Virus record (IMG/VR): IMGVR_UViG_3300038530_002083
Coordinates: 29,582 to 93,581 of that record
From: a virus
Lineage: Duplodnaviria; Caudoviricetes
Direction: 5' to 3' (one strand)
DNA length: 64,000 nucleotides
Shown piece after piece: positions 10,902-47,977 of the stretch. Under the pieces are notes generated by a model. It was given only the letters and a program-made list of their open reading frames with translations. It did no database searches and had not been told where the DNA came from. How positions within the stretch are numbered: the first letter of the stretch is position 1; each line of letters opens with the position of its first letter. Made by a program: the position numbers and the translations under genes.

Positions 10902-12263
10902 TTATCCTAAGTTAAGAGTTAGTGAACCAGTTAGATCTACAAACAAGATACCTTGTGCTAGTTCAGCACTAAACGAAGCACCGTTGTATAGACCTTGTTG
11001 CTTGGCAGATAATGGCATATCACTTGCTTTAACAAAGTCTAGCTCATAATCGGCTCGTATAAAGTTACGAAGTACATAGATATCTAAGACATTACGTACT
11101 GAAGCTTTAATCAGGGCAATACCTTCATCTGTATAAGGGATCTTAGTTCCTTTCTGAGAAAGAAGTAGTGTCAACATTTCCGCGTCTAGATCTACTTGCA
11201 TATTATCACGACCACGTACATTTGAAATCCATTCACCAGAAGGTGTTAGGTTGTTACGTAGTGTAGTACCGTCTGTGGTAATACCTGTAGATACTGCACG
11301 TTCTCCGTAAGAAGTATTACGGTCTTCTAGATAACCTTTCTCTGTTGCAGTAAGCGCTCGACCTGTGTTAGGGTTCTGAGAGATAGATACTGGTAGATTA
11401 ACGTTAGCCCAAGCTACAGAACCTGCATCATGAGGTGCATTAACTGCTACATGAATACATTCTGGGAATACGGTATCTGCATTGTGGTGGAAGTATACTT
11501 TAGTACGGTCTCTTCCAGCATCTTTAATCTTACCTGCTACATCTGTTGCACTACCCGCTGTATAAGGAGTAAGAGCAGCAGCATTTTGTGTAGAAGTGAA
11601 ATACATCTTCAATCGTGCTTCAATATCAGCAGATGCTTCTAGTTGGAAAGTCTCTGTATGGTCATCTGCCAAGAAGAAGTAGTAGTCATCATCTTCATCA
11701 GATAGAGCAGAAATAAGGTCACTTGCTGATTCTGTGGTATTATAAACTTCAGATAATTCATCTGAAAGGTCAGACACCCAGAATTCACTAGAAGCAGAAG
11801 CTACATCAATAGATACAGTATCTGTAGAAGCCGATGCAACTACAAGACCACCAATATCAGCATCACCTTCAATAGCAGCAGCAATAGCAGTAGCTACCGC
11901 ACCTTCATCAGCTTCTCCTGTAATATTAATAGGTAGTGTGTAAGTAACTCCTGCATTAGAAGCGTTAAATACTAAAGATGCTTTAGTTGCTCCTGTTGCT
12001 ACAGTTAAGTCTAAGTCTGCTTCTCTACGTCCCACTTTAACTACAGCAGGGGCAGGATTTAAGGAGAAGAAACCTTGTACAGCTTTATAAGCATTTGAGC
12101 TAGTTGGTAGGTCTTCTGAAGCTGATTGGAGAGAGGTGTAAGCACGTACACGTTCTGGGAAGTATCGATGAGCAGAGGCGAATAGCGGAGTACCAAAGCC
12201 TTGTCTAGTAACATTCGTAGTAGCTAACGAGATGTTAATGTTAGTTAAATTTCTATAAGTCAT
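10902..12263 (-). CDS. Tail sheath protein (DUF3383-like)
   Basis: GFGTPL, KIPYTDEGIALI motifs; precedes tube. Confidence 0.88.
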   Translation of the reverse strand: MTYRNLTNINISLATTNVTRQGFGTPLFASAHRYFPERVRAYTSLQSASEDLPTSSNAYKAVQGFFSLNPAPAVVKVGRREADLDLTVATGATKASLVFNASNAGVTYTLPINITGEADEGAVATAIAAAIEGDADIGGLVVASASTDTVSIDVASASSEFWVSDLSDELSEVYNTTESASDLISALSDEDDDYYFFLADDHTETFQLEASADIEARLKMYFTSTQNAAALTPYTAGSATDVAGKIKDAGRDRTKVYFHHNADTVFPECIHVAVNAPHDAGSVAWANVNLPVSISQNPNTGRALTATEKGYLEDRNTSYGERAVSTGITTDGTTLRNNLTPSGEWISNVRGRDNMQVDLDAEMLTLLLSQKGTKIPYTDEGIALIKASVRNVLDIYVLRNFIRADYELDFVKASDMPLSAKQQGLYNGASFSAELAQGILFVDLTGSLTLNLG

Positions 12264-15321: not shown

Positions 15322-15783
15322 TTATGCTGAAGCGCTGTAGAAAGAAGTTTCTAGTCGTTCAGTGGTAGCTTTAAGTTTAATACCTTGTTTACCAAGTTGA
15401 GCCTTAGCTGCATCTGTTTCTGTAGCATCAAGTGTACCAAAGTCTAGACCTACTTCTTTAACATTAGCTGCACCTTGGTATAGTACAACTACGTTACCAG
15501 TGGTCATATTCTTAGTATATGTATCACCTAGTGATTCAAAACCAACAACAATACCCAAACCGTAACCTAGAGGGCTAGTACCATCAAGAGTTGCTAGATT
15601 AGTAGCTTTCTCCCAGTGGTCAGTATCCCATACAACTACATCACCTAGTTTAACATCGGTAGCCGCAGCTTCTGTAAGAGTTTGGCGATGAGCAAAGTTA
15701 AAATCTAGAACTAAGCCAGCCATATCATCCATCAACACACCAGAAAGAACTTGTGCATCATTTTTAGTTGCAATAACAGTCAT
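15322..15783 (-). CDS. Head decoration protein
   Basis: Between scaffold and capsid; L.KQGIK C-terminus. Confidence 0.65.
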   Translation of the reverse strand: MTVIATKNDAQVLSGVLMDDMAGLVLDFNFAHRQTLTEAAATDVKLGDVVVWDTDHWEKATNLATLDGTSPLGYGLGIVVGFESLGDTYTKNMTTGNVVVLYQGAANVKEVGLDFGTLDATETDAAKAQLGKQGIKLKATTERLETSFYSASA

Positions 15784-35670: not shown

Positions 35671-36405
35671 ATGACACAGAAAACAATTGAAGACTTACTC
35701 TCCCTAGTAGGAGAGTATTCTTATGATGAGCTAACTGAAGCATTACGTCATAAAGTAGAGCAGGAAGATATACCTTACCATAAAGTAGAACAGAGTGGTA
35801 AATACCTTAAAACAGCTAAAATAAAGAAGATTAACGAAGGAAAAGACCTTACTCCTCGTAAATATGCCGACCTTGCAATGGGGATTCAATCTGCATTAAA
35901 TGTTTTAGATAATGACCTCCTCTACCAAGACGCTCTAAACGAAGCAGCGCTTATGTTAGGAAGAGACACACAATATGCCTTAGAAACTAAGAACTCTCCG
36001 TACAAGCACTCTAAGGCTGTCTTACGTGTACATAAAGATAACCCTACACTAAAAGAGCTTAAAACCACAGTCAAGCTTAGAGATATTGACCTTAACAGAA
36101 CTACAACCCTGTGGCAGTTTATTCATCTACTATCTCGCAATAAAGAATTGTATGATCAGTTTTTAGAATTACTTGACACAGTGAAAAGACAGGGAGAAGA
36201 TATAGAGAGTCTGAAAGCAGAGACTAGTTTACATGAGGTAGATATTACCACTCTAAAAGAACTAGTAGGTTTAGAAGACTTGCCAAATAAACATAAGGCA
36301 CTTATAATGTTAGGAAAAGGTATTAAGGCATCTCAAATTGCAGATAAACTTGGTGTGTCAGAGAGAACGGTACAGCGTTGGAGGAAAGATGAAAGTAGCA
36401 ACTAA
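35671..36405 (+). CDS. DNA-binding protein with C-terminal HTH
   Basis: SQIADKLGVSERTVQRW. Confidence 0.7.
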   Translation: MTQKTIEDLLSLVGEYSYDELTEALRHKVEQEDIPYHKVEQSGKYLKTAKIKKINEGKDLTPRKYADLAMGIQSALNVLDNDLLYQDALNEAALMLGRDTQYALETKNSPYKHSKAVLRVHKDNPTLKELKTTVKLRDIDLNRTTTLWQFIHLLSRNKELYDQFLELLDTVKRQGEDIESLKAETSLHEVDITTLKELVGLEDLPNKHKALIMLGKGIKASQIADKLGVSERTVQRWRKDESSN

Positions 36406-38253: not shown

Positions 38254-38784
38254 ATGACTACAGTAGTGATCGACTTTAAAGAGGGGAAAGTATTAGCTGA
38301 CAGGCAAACTACACAGACGCACTATGAAAAATTTTCTATCTTCCACATGGTAACAGGTACTGAACCTAAGATTAATAAAGACTCTTTCAGTATAGAAGCT
38401 AATGATAAGATACATAAAGTAGGTGATGTGGTCTTAGTTGGGTCTGGGGATAGAGACGAGGTATTAAGATTAGTTAAAGAATATACGCACCGAAACCATA
38501 TACCAAAACCTAAGACAGATAATGTCACTCTCGCTGTAGTGAGAAAGAAAGGGGATGGACTATTTGTAGAATTATACGATGGTAAGAAAGGTAAATACTC
38601 TTGGAATTCTCCTGTATGGGATTTTAACATTATACAAGGGAATGAAAATACCATAACTTTCGGTTCAGGAGGAGATTACGCCTATGGTGCTATAAAAGCA
38701 GGTTTAACTTCAGAAGAGGCTATGGTAGCAGCAAGTAAATGTGATAAGTATACATCATTTGAGTATGATGTAGTAACTTTATAG
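38254..38784 (+). CDS. HslV/proteasome-like Ntn-hydrolase peptidase
   Basis: MTT N-terminus, AD.Q.T, GSGGDYAYGA, D.YT. Confidence 0.7.
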   Translation: MTTVVIDFKEGKVLADRQTTQTHYEKFSIFHMVTGTEPKINKDSFSIEANDKIHKVGDVVLVGSGDRDEVLRLVKEYTHRNHIPKPKTDNVTLAVVRKKGDGLFVELYDGKKGKYSWNSPVWDFNIIQGNENTITFGSGGDYAYGAIKAGLTSEEAMVAASKCDKYTSFEYDVVTL

Positions 38785-39470: not shown

Positions 39471-39728
39471 ATGGATATTAGTATCACAGAATTCTTTTCA
39501 CATACAATAACACATGAAATGAAAATGCCTGAAGAAGGACAACGTGTATTAGCTTTATATAAAGGAGAATGGATTGTATTAGAAGTGGGGGTAGAATCCC
39601 CTACATACGAAGAACCTTACTTCCCTCCATTTAAGTATTGGTTTGAACCATTCTTTAATATGTTAGACATAGAGTACGATGATGTAACAGAGTGGAGAGA
39701 GTTACCTGATAAGGGTATAAATAAATGA
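39471..39728 (+). CDS. DUF551-like protein
   Basis: MPEEGQRVL..VTEWRELP. Confidence 0.6.
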   Translation: MDISITEFFSHTITHEMKMPEEGQRVLALYKGEWIVLEVGVESPTYEEPYFPPFKYWFEPFFNMLDIEYDDVTEWRELPDKGINK

Positions 39729-40279
39729 ATGTATCCGATATGACACATGATGACATAGCAGACCATATAGCTCACTACCTTAAAGGTAAAGGCTATGAAC
39801 TCGCATTTAGTAATATGACTGACCCTATACAGTGGGAACAACCTGACGTAATGGGTATGAATCTATATGGTGAATCTATACTATGCGAAGTAAAAGTAAG
39901 TAGGTCAGATTTTAAAGCTGACGCTAATAAAGGTTTTAGAGAGGAAGGTAAAGGGACAGGAGATTATAGAGTATATGTAACTCCTAGAGGTTTACTCTCT
40001 CCCGAAGAAATACCTTATGGATGGATGCTATGGGAAATACATGGTAAGACAAAACCTATAGTTAAAATAATAAAAGGGAGGAAGAAAGTAAAAGAACCCC
40101 ACCCTGACTACTCTTGGTCTGCTACAGTACATAAATATTTAAACACTACAGAGGAAGAGTATAAGTATTTTGTACAAAAAGATAAGAATTACAGAACAGA
40201 GTACCAATGGCTACACAAAATAGTAAGACGCGCAGAAGAAGATGGTATAGATATGAACTTATACGCTAAAGGAGAATAA
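39725..40279 (+). CDS. PD-(D/E)xK nuclease-like protein (MmcB-like)
   Basis: EQPDV..EVKVSRSDFKAD..G.YR.Y. Confidence 0.65.
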   Translation: MNVSDMTHDDIADHIAHYLKGKGYELAFSNMTDPIQWEQPDVMGMNLYGESILCEVKVSRSDFKADANKGFREEGKGTGDYRVYVTPRGLLSPEEIPYGWMLWEIHGKTKPIVKIIKGRKKVKEPHPDYSWSATVHKYLNTTEEEYKYFVQKDKNYRTEYQWLHKIVRRAEEDGIDMNLYAKGE

Positions 40280-40539
40280 GCTAGAAAGAAGTACATACCC
40301 TCCTAAGAAACCCTTCCTTTCTATAAGAAGTCCTGTAACGAGTTTATAGGGCTTTTCTATCCCACCCTATACAACAGGGTATTTATCCCAAGAAATCCTC
40401 TCAGAGGCTTATACAGAGCCATATACAACACTATTCACCCTCTATAATCCTAAATACTTCCCTATCTTTCATAAATACCCCTAAAAACATAGTAAAACAT
40501 ACAAAATATACATTTCCCTTACAAAACAGTACCTTATAA

Positions 40540-40700
40540 AATATATACCCCTTTCCAAAATATCTATCCTATTGAAATATCTACCTTTTCCAAAATATCC
40601 TATTTCCAAATATTAGTATTTTCTTACTACTTTAGTCTACCCAAATATACCCCTTTTCCAAATAAACCTCTTCCAAACGGTATCCCCTATTCAAAATATG
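40540..40700 (+). repeat. Degenerate tandem C-rich repeats (~TATxCCyyTTCCAAA, about 7-8 copies)
   Basis: e.g. tatacccctttccaaaa, tatctaccttttccaaaa, tatcctatttccaaa, tataccccttttccaaa. Confidence 0.7.
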
Positions 40701-40931
40701 GCATATTGAGAAATATTCTCTATAAGGAGTATTCTCTAAAAAAGTAATCTCTTATGTTTGGGTGTTAAACCTACAAACTCCACCCCTACCAAAATTCCTG
40801 ATAAAAGTAAAATATCTATTAGCTATATCCTTAGACAAGAATGCTATATGAATGCATATGCGTTTAACATGCATATCTATCCACTATATAAACCTTGCAT
40901 AATTATCTAATATTAAAGCATATTTATTCAG

Positions 40932-41567
40932 TGTCGTTTTTTGTCGCATTCTATGACAGTTCATTACCTATATACCTATTTAGGAAAACTATATAGGAAA
41001 ACAATCTATAGAGAACTGTATACTCGTATACTACTATGGCACATACCTTGCTAAGAGTATCCCTTATAATAGTTGGCATACTATATGCTATAGCATAGAA
41101 CGTGCCATTAATAATAATATGCATATAACATACCAATGGTATACCCCCCTCTAAAACGCTCTGTATAGCCCTGTATTGAGTTTTAGGTGCTACCCCTAGT
41201 GTTTATACCTCTTTTAAGAGATCTCTATAAATCGGGTTTTGATAGGAGAACTATAACTAAAAGTTCTATACAAAACGACACTATATGGCACACCTTTTGC
41301 TAGAACTCTGTCATAGAATACTTATGCAAGAATACTGAATAAAGATTCACTACTATAGAATGTCGTTTTTTGTCGGGTAATCTCTACACTCATTCCCTAT
41401 ATAAATACTATAGGAAAAGAACACTCTAAATAGACGACAAAAAACGACAAACGTGTCGTAAGAGTATCTATAAAGAATACCCCTAATTAGAGGATGTCGT
41501 TTTTTGTCGCTTTTTGTAATAACTCTTTCTCTATATAACAATATAGGAAAAGAACACTCTAAATAGA
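40932..41567. repeat. TGTCG-T6-GTCG repeats and linked ~75-bp unit
   Basis: Exact TGTCGTTTTTTGTCG at 40932, 41361, 41495 (+) and 41435-41449 (-); 26-bp TATAGGAAAAGAACACTCTAAATAGA at 41409 and 41542. Confidence 0.85.
41037..41301. promoter_or_regulatory. Cluster of five sigma54-like -24/-12 boxes
   Basis: TGGYA-N7-TGC at 41037(+), 41074(+), 41107(-), 41135(-), 41286(+). Confidence 0.65.
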
Positions 41568-41906
41568 ATAAGCTATAAGAGGCGCTGTATAGCATTCTAA
41601 GAGGTTTTATTTATTATAAGTACATTGGTATGTATTTGTAGAGTTCTATTCGTAGAATAAGGTAGGGGACTGATTTGGTTAACACTTCGTGTGAGAAAAC
41701 CCTCAATATATAGCTAGGGTATCATAGGGTAATTTATATAAAGAAACCTCTTTTATATATTAATAATTAACCCACTAACACAAAATAGAAGCCATTTATA
41801 GAGAGGGTTTACAAGGGAATCTTTTATAAGAAGTCTCTAATTAGAGGTATCTTTTATAGAAATCTTTTAACTTCGTTAAATAGGGTACTCCTTATTGCAA
41901 GGCAAT

Positions 41907-41940
41907 AAAAAAGCCCCTTATACAGGGGCTTACTTTTTTT
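41907..41940. terminator. Bidirectional terminator ending the leftward early operon
   Basis: A run-AAGCCCCT-tatac-AGGGGCTT-T run. Confidence 0.8.
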
Positions 41941-41954
41941 CTGAAGTCTGTTTA

Positions 41955-43585
41955 TTACTTCTTGTGTATGAAATAAAGATCCTCCTTGTTTTGTGTTAGA
42001 TCTTCTAAAATTGTTCTTAAAAGTTTCAATTGTTTTGTTGCCTTTGTTATACCCATAACCCCCGTAACGATCTGGCTTCCTAAATCTTTCGCCTCCTTCT
42101 CTATCAGATATCTGATACTGGCACTTTTGTTAACTATAACAATTGTAGAATCTCCTTTATAAGATAGAAAAACAATATTATTAGTCGTTTGTTTGATTGA
42201 TACTGCGTCAGTAACTTGAATTTCATTGTTCATGGTAATAGTTCTCATTTGAAAGTTAGTAATAACGGGAAAAGCCCTTACCAATTAAGATAGAGGCTTA
42301 TTGTTTAGATTGCAAGGCTTTTTAATAAATAATTTTAAAACTATTATACTTTTGTTCTTTCACTACCTTGTTACACTCTTTTATAAGTCTCTTTCTTATT
42401 TGTTCTTGTGTACTGTCATTGTTAGCCAATACTTTAAAATAAATGTTGCTTGGTAGATAACCATGCTTTTCAAAAGATACGCAATGCATAGAGTGCTTGT
42501 TAATGTTATTTCTTGCTTGGCTAATAGTGATCATATTCATTGTAGTATATCCTTAATTCTAGCCTCTATACGCCATTGTGAGACGTTTTAAGAGGGTATT
42601 AATACAATGTGTTAAGTTTAGGGTAAAAACGCTGTACAGTGTTATACAGCGCCTTTTGTGAATGGTTAATTCAATAACTCAAGCCTATTATTAATTGCAT
42701 AGCTTTCTAGCAAACTTTTTGCCGCGTCTAAAGATCTAGGTGATGAATCGAAGCATAAATCCGCATCAAAGTTACCCACATATTTATAACAAGAAACAAT
42801 GAAACCACCTGCTACAGAATGAAGCGCATAGAAGTGACCGCCTAAAGTTTTTGTAGTTTGGTTAAGTGTAACTAGTCGCATAACATTACCTTTTAAAATT
42901 TGAGCCGTTGCACCATTGCCCCGACTTCAGAAGTTAAACAGTGTTTAACCACTTGATAACTCACATATTAGATAAACAATGAAATCCTGTCAACAAGTTT
43001 TTATAATTTATTTACAGTTACCCTTTTTAAACCGTCCTTGTCTGTTTTTACTTGGTATTCATTCCCGTCAATAACATGACTTCCATCAGGCAACCCTACA
43101 CATAAACGCTTTATTAAATCGACTCGCATACCCTCTTTTAACACTATATCGTGCTTAAGATATACAGCTAAATCATTCAACGCCGTTTCAAAAGTGATTC
43201 TATTAAAACCTCGATCCCTTTCTTCGTTAATCTTATTGATTGTTGCTTGATGAGTGAACTTTTTAAATGTATCTGTTAGGAACATTGTTTACGCCTCGTT
43301 ATACAAAAAGTTTAAAAGTTGTTTTTCACCTTGTCTATTAAATAAACAACTAGCAGTTCCGATAATATTACAATTATTGTCTGAATCGATAGATCTTCTT
43401 GTATAGTCAAAGCTTGACTTGTTCAACCTGTCAAAGCTTACTTGTAAAAAGTCATCGCCAACAAACAACCAAAAGAGATGGTCATATTTCAAACATTCTA
43501 TTTTATCAATTTTTAAAGTTTTTAAAAATGCCGTTAATTGTGCAGATGTTTTTATTTCTCGTACTTTTTCAGATAATAAGCTCAT
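41955..43585 (-). other. Cluster of small early genes (41955-42233, 42322-42540, 42666-42881, 43001-43285, 43289-43585)
   Basis: Short ORFs, mostly with their own RBS and sigma70 promoter. Confidence 0.7.
42965..42993 (-). promoter_or_regulatory. Strong early sigma70 promoter
   Basis: AAAACTTG-TTGACA-17-TAATAT; same type at 44364-44391, ~44816-44844, ~45708-45737. Confidence 0.75.
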
Positions 43586-46107: not shown

Positions 46108-47977
46108 TAAAAAAACTTTTAAAAAACCCTTGCATTATTGTGAGGGCTTTACTATAATAAACTTACAAATTGAGAAAAACAACGCCATAGGTACTGACGC
46201 GGTACGAAATAAACACCACCCCTGTCCGATATAAAATCACTTCATTCAAGTTCTATGCCAAACTGTCATCCTACCAGTTAATTTAAAGATTACAAATGTA
46301 ATTAATACCAGACGATATTTATAGCATAACTTTAGTAGAAATTTCTTGTTAATCAAATTTCTGTCTAGTCCTCAGTGAAAAATCTGTCTAGTTCTAATAA
46401 AGAAAAACCCCACCAATTAAAACACTGGCAGGGTCAAATTATTATCAAGTTGTAATCTTCTCTGTAACGTCCTATAACAGTATTTCTCTCTAGACTTGAG
46501 CCATCGTACTACTTCTAATAGATATCCTCTCAGGGACGTTTACAGAGAGTTATTTAGCATGTTTCATAGAACCCTTTATCTTCTAATGGTCTCTTAACCA
46601 CTTTAGGTGTGAAAGTTAAACCATGTCCATAACTTCTATAGTAGTATACCACTCCGTTAACACATACTTCTTCTAATCTGTGTGAATAGTCAGGCATACC
46701 TTGTTCAGGTGGTGGGATTTTTTCTGTCTTTTGTACCTCACAGTCTGTAATAAAAACTACACCTAAAACTAATAGCATTATTTTAATCATTATCTTCTCC
46801 TTCAATTAATTCTTTATACTGATTCAAAAATTGTTCTACACCTTCGAAATGTAGAGATGTACCAGTATACACACTGTTATAGTAAAGTCTAACAATTTCT
46901 TTTTCGGGTATATGTTCAAAAGAAGTAAACCTTGTTGTAGCGTACCCTACTATCAGAAATAATTCATCTTGAAAGGTGGTACATCTAGCTATTTTCACTT
47001 TGCTAGCTCCTCTATTAATGCATCTGCATGAGATACGGCTATTTTTGCCAACTCCTTAGCGCTACTTATCTCTAAATAATCATCAGAGGATATTAACCCT
47101 TGCATAGCTTCACCTGCAAAGTATTCTCGTTTGGTTAATCCCCCTACGGGTATTCTATCTTCTAAACAGCTTGAGTTTTTTACAATTTTGTATGTAGGGT
47201 ATATACTTTGTTTCACAATTCAACCTCCTTTGTAGATTTATTTACCACTAAGCGCACTTTACTACCGATGATGTACTTAACAGATTAGACTCGTTAGATT
47301 ATGTCGTATTGCTCATGCAGTTCGAGCATATATTTCACCATAGACTGTGAACCTTCATAGTCCTGACATAAATCCCAAGCCTCAGCCTTACTTATCGTCA
47401 GCTTGATGGGTTTTAAGTTCTTAGCCTTGCAAACGTAATACTCTCCGTTTTCATCCTCTATTACTATTTGTCCTTTTGAATCTTCAAAGCCAACTTTTAC
47501 CCTGCATGGCTCATTACACCAAGTATGCGTCCACTTCTCGCCCTCTTGCTCTTTCACGTAAGCTTCGAATTCTGCGCGGGTGCAGACTTGGTAGAAATAC
47601 GACGAATCAAAATGACAACCACCAGCGTAATATTCACCAACCTCACTCCCGCATTCGTCCCCCTTCGTGCAGTAAATAATAACTTGCTCATCGTATGGAG
47701 GAGGATTACCCACAATTGGGTTTGGCCATATTCCATCAAAATACTCCACCGCATCCGCAACGGTTTTTGTTTGTGGTAATCGACTATAAAAATCTTCCAA
47801 GTTAGCAATGTAGCTATAATCGGCTCTCAACCAATCCGCGAAGTAATCAACCGCCGCCTTTGCGTTATCATTCCATTTCACATCAATCATTTGTTTTGTT
47901 CTCCTAGACTAATAAATTTTAACTGCATTTTTAACATAGTAAGCTTACGTTTTCTTTCCCACTCAAATTCTCTCATT

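Follow-up and report, generated by a model that had tools for sequence, protein, structure and literature searches.

The locus described here raises the question of what a phage does with five sigma-54-type boxes that point both ways in DNA carrying no credible gene downstream of them. Sigma-54 stands alone among bacterial sigma factors in that its polymerase binds DNA and remains silent until an ATP-driven activator fires it, and Alteromonas, the flagellated gammaproteobacterium to which the host of the cultured relative of this phage belongs, is expected to have rpoN. The use of sigma-54 by phages has been almost unstudied: no paper describing hubs of the kind reported below was found in the literature, and the only published phage promoter of the sigma-54 type that we found is P015 of the Pseudomonas phage YuA, recognized as sigma-54-like by promoter trap and ONT-cappable-seq (PMC10914365). 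A preliminary description of the locus had proposed a decoy for sigma-54, a transcription barrier or a T5-like injection stop, all of which are considered below.

The stretch of DNA analysed (the window, 64,000 nucleotides) corresponds to positions 29582-93581 of a viral record 93,581 bp long. Both ends of the record have a 99-bp overlap in common (93,482 + 99; 'direct terminal repeat' in IMG/VR), most simply explained as an assembly overlap in a genome that is complete. Nothing was found to support the earlier placing of the box-bearing block near a predicted genome end, and the near-match at 46260 (-), which had been assigned to the other predicted end, is devoid of the GC element and stands at chance level. 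The cultured relative is Alteromonas phage V22, the host of which is Alteromonas mediterranea PT11. In the paper on this myovirus (vB_AmeM_PT11-V22) GOV_bin_2917 is given as its only known relative (PMC7289586). Neither blastn against cultured phages nor protein-anchored scans of IMG/VR revealed a relative of the block besides V22, and a metagenome scan yielded one Tara scaffold, which stops short of the block. Block conservation therefore refers throughout to two genomes, that of the window's phage and V22, the sole carriers in the collections searched.

The boxes sit in the middle of a gene-free block with the following elements:

40280-41954: gene-free block of 1.67 kb between convergent arms, the largest non-coding gap of the genome
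40364-40380 (+): small hairpin, conserved, with a T-rich tail behind it, candidate terminator of the plus arm
40420-40700 (+): nearly G-free zone with 2.8% G and 26% C and about nine same-strand words of the CCAAAATAT type
40932-40946 (+): TGTCG-T6-GTCG copy 1, about 105 bp upstream of box 1, heading a 57-nt repeat unit
41361-41375 (+): TGTCG-T6-GTCG copy 2
41435-41449 (-): TGTCG-T6-GTCG copy 3, inverted, pairing with copy 2 as a perfect inverted repeat of 15 bp
41495-41509 (+): TGTCG-T6-GTCG copy 4
41911-41931: bidirectional intrinsic-terminator hairpin that ends the minus arm, conserved in V22

According to the list of open reading frames the plus arm stops at 40279 and the minus arm at 41955, so that the junction is convergent. 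The plus arm carries DNA-metabolism genes (a Dda-like helicase, a nucleotidyltransferase, an HTH protein and DprA), and the minus arm to the right of the block consists of small genes. V22 has a syntenic, unannotated gap of 1.6 kb, and the gap ranks first in size in both genomes. The flanking accessory genes mostly differ between the two phages. A 'proteasome-like protein' borders the gap of V22; its counterpart in the window (38254-38784, 66% identity) is separated from the block by about 1.5 kb of extra small genes reaching 39725-40279, owing to which the left neighbours of the block are not conserved. The statement that no credible gene follows the boxes has held: the three ORFs of the block (50, 61 and 80 aa) are not conserved in V22, the record of which annotates nothing there. 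The ORF at 40758-40910 was rejected as a gene since a stop codon breaks its V22 version. No tRNA genes were found in the block, a search of it against Rfam gave sub-threshold matches only, and sigma-70-like promoters are scarcer in it than in shuffled sequences (5 versus 11.2).

Two of the block elements bear on the boxes by their position. Nowhere in the genome is strand skew stronger than in the 280-nt zone at 40420-40700, into which boxes 3 and 4 point; the zone is kept in V22 (3.8% G) and holds the top skew rank in both genomes. The CCAAAATAT 'iterons' within it are loose words and not sharp repeats. The TGTCG-T6-GTCG sequence occurs in four exact copies, all in the block and none elsewhere in the genome, and three of them head the 57-nt repeat unit. 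Copy 3 is on the minus strand part of a terminator-like hairpin, and the direct repeat that precedes box 1 by 105 bp is a candidate enhancer. In V22 a TGTCA-N6-TGTCA direct repeat resembling a Pho box lies 80-130 bp upstream of the plus-strand boxes; the block-specific repeats of the two genomes differ. The gene at 35671-36405 (+) encodes a protein of 244 amino acids with a C-terminal HTH weakly like those of small terminases and repressors, and this protein is a candidate reader of the block-specific repeats.

All five boxes that had been described were found, in both directions and within 265 bp:

41037-41052 (+): box 1, perfect TGGCAC-N5-TTGCW; an insertion in the window's genome, with no V22 counterpart
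41074-41089 (+): box 2, left half of a face-to-face pair; V22 orthologue at L001 6716 (+), core 9/9, spacer 2/7
41092-41107 (-): box 3, right half of the pair, pointing left; V22 orthologue at L001 6749 (-), core 9/9, spacer 3/7
41120-41135 (-): box 4, weaker (TGGTAT...TGCA), pointing left, 28 nt from box 3 and likewise in V22
41286-41301 (+): box 5, perfect consensus, pointing right and followed by a short V22-conserved stretch
41074-41107: the face-to-face pair formed by boxes 2 and 3, 34 bp, with the -12 elements 4 bp apart around a central TATA

GG and GC are exactly 10 bp apart in each of them, and the two perfect boxes (41037+ and 41286+) are the only zero-mismatch occurrences of TGGCAC-N5-TTGCW in the whole 93,581-bp genome. 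When one mismatch to this consensus was allowed, three of the four sites of the genome fell inside the cluster. Shuffled sequences led us to expect 0.57 matches to the looser pattern TGGYAY-N6-TGCW in the 64-kb window; eight were found, five of them within the 265-bp span, in which about 0.002 loose boxes would be expected by chance. The preliminary figure of about 0.01 expected sites was thus conservative. A similar motif density elsewhere in the genome was not found, and one-mismatch sites occur at near-chance density (26 outside the cluster versus about 18 expected). The other loose matches of the window were located in the structural-gene arm, at 11013-11028 (+), which is one mismatch from the consensus, 15424-15439 (-) and 24209-24224 (+). 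A sixth, degenerate box near 41626 was discarded; it has the wrong spacing and is missing from the list of one-mismatch sites.

Comparison with V22 separates the core of the boxes from the DNA around it. In the four boxes with V22 orthologues 33 of the 36 core positions are identical, as against 8 of the 28 spacer positions, which is the chance level. The distances between boxes (33 and 28 nt) are kept as well, so that the boxes passed the check on spacing in relatives set out in the preliminary description. V22 has an additional box further right, beyond the four orthologues. Outside short patches the sequence downstream of the boxes is poorly conserved and interrupted by many indels. The box array is thus real, non-random and conserved, and selection acts on the box core only.

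The face-to-face pair is not confined to these two phages. Its frame of 20 fixed bases was found at 57 loci in IMG/VR, of G+C content from 32 to 61%, where about 0.05 would be expected; the size of the collection was put near 5 x 10^10 bases from the 91 matches to a control pattern with 15 fixed bases. The excess in viral contigs is therefore more than 1000-fold over chance, and one phage genus with such a conserved sigma-54-type hub has a cultured member. In contrast, 596 Gb of bacterial and archaeal genomes gave two matches versus about 0.5 by chance, which is chance level. The cellular matches are L065 3086-3119 (Paraliobacillus ryukyuensis) and L066 121-154, on a contig binned as Thorarchaeota; this 5-kb contig of an archaeal MAG may be a mis-binned phage fragment.

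The positions left free by the search pattern are informative as to which protein may read the pair. Among the 118 half-sites of 59 viral pairs they were occupied by C/T (0.97), G/A (0.99), T (0.64) and T (0.61), as in the sigma-54 consensus with Y-R after TGGCA, T before TGC and T before TGG; the ChIP-defined sigma-54 sites of Salmonella served as the comparison set (PMC3844500). Together with the match of the cores, both perfect sites of the genome included, these preferences support the sigma-54-type identity that had been proposed for the boxes well at the level of sequence, and we consider this identity probable. Bacterial sigma-54 promoters (glnAp2, pspA; those of Salmonella, PMC3844500) have the same two-part core TGGCAY-R...TTGCW and share the weaker flanking preferences too. 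The array of the phage differs from them in having no downstream gene, no activator gene and no recognizable enhancer, and in being packed both ways into 265 bp with two sites overlapping face to face.

The two halves of the pair do not form a hairpin of any regularity. Complementarity between their spacers is 31%, the chance level, the fold in the window is weak and the V22 copy folds differently. The hairpin or cruciform reading was rejected on these grounds, and the dyad is better understood as two protein-read half-sites. The halves are not equivalent, since one TGGCAC half is combined with one TGGCAT half in 41 of 53 distinct pairs (IMG/VR loci L005-L061), far more commonly than independent halves would give. 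Leaderless genes starting from an ATG or GTG inside the pair were also considered and dismissed, the median ORF being 13-15 codons long.

Thirteen carrier genomes are complete or nearly so, and in 12 of them the good boxes are gathered in a single cluster, referred to here as the hub; where gene calls are clean the hub occupies one of the three largest non-coding gaps. The genes flanking it are divergent in six genomes, convergent in four (those of the window's phage and V22 among them) and tandem in two, so that the hub is not bound to one type of junction. With the boxes masked, a 9-mer present at least three times was found in 33% of hubs and in 5% of control windows. The 42.5 kb of DNA near pairs contained 29 perfect DnaA boxes (TTATCCACA), as compared with 6 in 391 kb of other sequence. 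At least four uncultured phage families, unrelated to one another, have arrays of these boxes within 400 bp of a pair (L007 9082-9141, L029 4055-4169, L038 341-382, L056 2620-2693, and relatives), some of them at 11-bp steps. No DnaA box with up to one mismatch was found in the block of the window. Extreme skew beside the hub did not prove to be a general trait: apart from the two Myoalteroviruses, two genomes showed it, and these in part. The PeSL cassette boundaries of T4-type phages resemble the hub as repeated regulatory modules in non-coding DNA, but they occur many times per genome and carry a stem-loop; a boundary of this type was rejected for the single hub, with its non-complementary spacers and weak, unconserved fold.

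The gene content of the carriers was searched for a reader of the sites. Profile searches of the phage's own genome, in which PF00158, PF04552, PF04542 and PF00940 are absent, revealed no sigma-54 DNA-binding domain, enhancer-binding AAA+ domain, sigma-70 region 2 or T7-type RNA polymerase. PF00158 (activator) and PF00940 (T7-type RNA polymerase, 0/40) are likewise absent from 40 carrier records, with CRP-804 detected as the positive control. All-against-all comparison of the 13 carrier genomes did not show a DNA-binding protein family in common at the BLAST level, which makes a host factor the simplest universal reader, and the spread of the 57 loci over such a range of G+C also argues for a universal host reader. 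The only protein widely shared among the 13 genomes is a family-A DNA polymerase (11/13); the next most common are a large terminase, in seven genomes, and a protein of unknown function, in five. The polymerase was detected in 22 of the 40 carrier records and in 6 of 44 random viral contigs of at least 10 kb (Fisher p = 7e-5), with the proviso that the carrier lineages in this comparison are not independent; its enrichment may simply mark virulent phages. Two cultured relatives of one carrier lineage by their family-A polymerase, pelagiphage HTVC104P and roseophage CRP-804, are both without a hub. The phage of the window encodes a family-A polymerase and a primase-helicase.

Our best reading, held tentatively, is that host sigma-54 polymerase docks at an origin or control block of the phage. 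Binding by sigma-54, firing and a link with replication are what we infer here from the sites, their conservation, their recurrence among phages and their genomic context. In this model the five boxes would be docking sites for the host sigma-54 RNA polymerase holoenzyme and would together constitute the single hub of the phage, in the centre of a conserved, repeat-rich control block; the replication origin most likely coincides with this block or lies inside it. The polymerase would wait there as a silent closed complex until fired by an activator not encoded by the phage in recognizable form. The activator might be an enhancer-binding protein of the host or a phage factor that has escaped recognition. 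Leftward RNAs started at boxes 3 and 4 would cross the zone at 40420-40700 and would be G-rich and free of C, a composition prone to persistent RNA-DNA hybrids. In the other direction, RNAs started at boxes 1, 2 and 5 would run through the TGTCG-repeat units as far as the hairpin at 41911-41931, a terminator that would keep rightward hub transcripts inside the block. These non-coding RNAs would activate or prime DNA synthesis by the family-A polymerase and the primase-helicase of the phage, and host polymerase would thereby do what phages such as T7 do with an RNA polymerase of their own.

Transcription-dependent origins are known from several systems: the primary origin of T7 has promoters and an AT-rich region, oriF and oriG of T4 combine a promoter with an R-loop, activation of the lambda origin depends on transcription, and ColE1 uses RNA II with Pol I. 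The hub resembles them in having promoter-type sites aimed at a compositionally special non-coding zone, at one locus per genome, in a phage that possesses a family-A polymerase and a primase-helicase. It differs from them in its promoter class, sigma-54 requiring an ATP-driven activator, in its position at a convergent junction and in being known from sequence. The repeats, the DnaA boxes, the family-A polymerase and the single hub fit together with a replication origin or control region. Several observations speak against an origin: a convergent junction is an atypical position for one, the block of the window has no DnaA boxes, its 'iterons' are loose and a skewed zone is rare at other hubs. 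The model does not account for the TGGCAC/TGGCAT asymmetry, and an activator was found neither in the phage's own genome nor in the 40 carrier records. A wider form of it is possible but doubtful. It would state that many virulent phages with their own family-A polymerase, and with neither an RNA polymerase nor a sigma factor, share an undescribed face-to-face sigma-54 origin or control hub, often placed by DnaA boxes or phage iterons, in which the normally silent, enhancer-dependent polymerase can be switched on to start replication or early transcription in both directions, independently of sigma-70 and once triggered by some activator outside the recognized set.

The rival that deserves most attention holds that the half-sites bind a dimeric protein other than sigma-54, phage-encoded or not, with a part in packaging, recombination or a cassette boundary, and that the likeness to sigma-54 is coincidence or mimicry. 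The strict dyad geometry with its fixed centre and the near absence of the pair from cellular genomes are what such a protein would lead one to expect, and the C/T asymmetry of the halves suggests a composite site. Differences of the block repeats from those of V22 are likewise expected for phage-specific binding proteins, and the HTH protein encoded at 35671-36405 shares 26% identity with its V22 counterpart, a low value next to the 66-73% of neighbouring genes. This explanation has, however, to supply a reader for 13 carriers that have no DNA-binding family in common and for loci of such diverse base composition. It also has to meet the free positions, which reproduce the sigma-54 consensus in detail, and the fact that the best consensus matches in this genome are the unpaired boxes at 41037+ and 41286+. 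We consider it unlikely. If sigma-54 reads the sites, phage replication or expression is coupled to host physiology in a widespread and unrecognised manner; if it does not, a very widespread DNA reader must exist that mimics the specificity of sigma-54. Either answer can be tested by routine experiments.

Docking of sigma-54 polymerase could also serve ends other than an origin. If the sites never fire, they might act as a sponge that, as phage DNA accumulates, titrates the cell's pool of about a hundred sigma-54 molecules and silences sigma-54 regulons such as flagella, Psp, Rtc and some cas genes, or the closed complex might be a roadblock that insulates the converging arms. Neither an activator gene nor a downstream gene was found, the block lies between convergent arms, and many non-promoter sigma-54 sites with proposed repressive roles exist in Salmonella (PMC3844500). 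As a sponge the arrangement would be wasteful, however, since overlapping face-to-face sites accommodate one polymerase only, and the sites are confined to a single hub instead of being spread over the genome; both properties point to a local, cis-acting role. The transcription barrier fits the convergent junction of this phage but not the hubs located between divergent genes in about half of the other carriers, where a roadblock is pointless, and terminators already bound the block. Neither form of this proposal was upheld, and we regard it as distinctly improbable.

An equally improbable option, to our mind, is that the boxes are sigma-54 promoters of non-coding RNAs with a regulatory function, some of them running antisense into the arm ends, and that these RNAs would link phage expression to a host signal through an enhancer-binding protein and have no role in replication. 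Phage YuA offers a precedent in P015, a host sigma-54-type promoter used by a phage that has no sigma-54 of its own (PMC10914365), though it is a single promoter ahead of genes and the hub is a gene-free array with a dyad pair found in many unrelated phages. The stretch conserved with V22 after box 5 would suit such RNAs; the terminator at 41911-41931 would define rightward transcripts of 620-870 nt, and both the TGTCG repeat and the Pho-box-like repeat of V22 lie at enhancer-like distances from the boxes. Against this, no Rfam match exceeded the threshold, the downstream DNA is poorly conserved and rich in indels, no candidate structure is supported by the two sequences available, and the associations with DnaA boxes and the family-A polymerase are left unexplained.

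A physical genome end or T5-like injection stop, at which a host protein would clamp the entering DNA, is very improbable: the block does resemble the iss region of T5 as a large, untranslated, repeat-rich stretch with sites for a host DNA-binding factor, and pairs in other phage families have DnaA boxes beside them, but the palindrome-rich T5 region has DnaA boxes and no sigma-54 boxes (Davison, bioRxiv 10.1101/866236), the reverse of the block, the 99-bp overlap is most simply due to assembly, neither a terminal repeat nor two-step entry is known for Myoalterovirus, and end-proximal enrichment did not appear, the pairs showing no significant excess near contig ends relative to a control motif (p = 0.10).

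New in the present analysis are a cultured model phage with its host, the test of core against spacer conservation, the association with DnaA boxes, the contrasts in family-A polymerase and T7-type RNA polymerase with their controls, the asymmetry of the half-sites and the G-free zone. Outside the window, about 5.2 kb before its start, a minus-strand gene (genome 24010-24351) specifies a CheY-like receiver domain that stands on its own (PF00072, E = 2.6e-19). V22 also encodes a CheY-like receiver domain, and a tie of this protein to host two-component or sigma-54 activators is conceivable.
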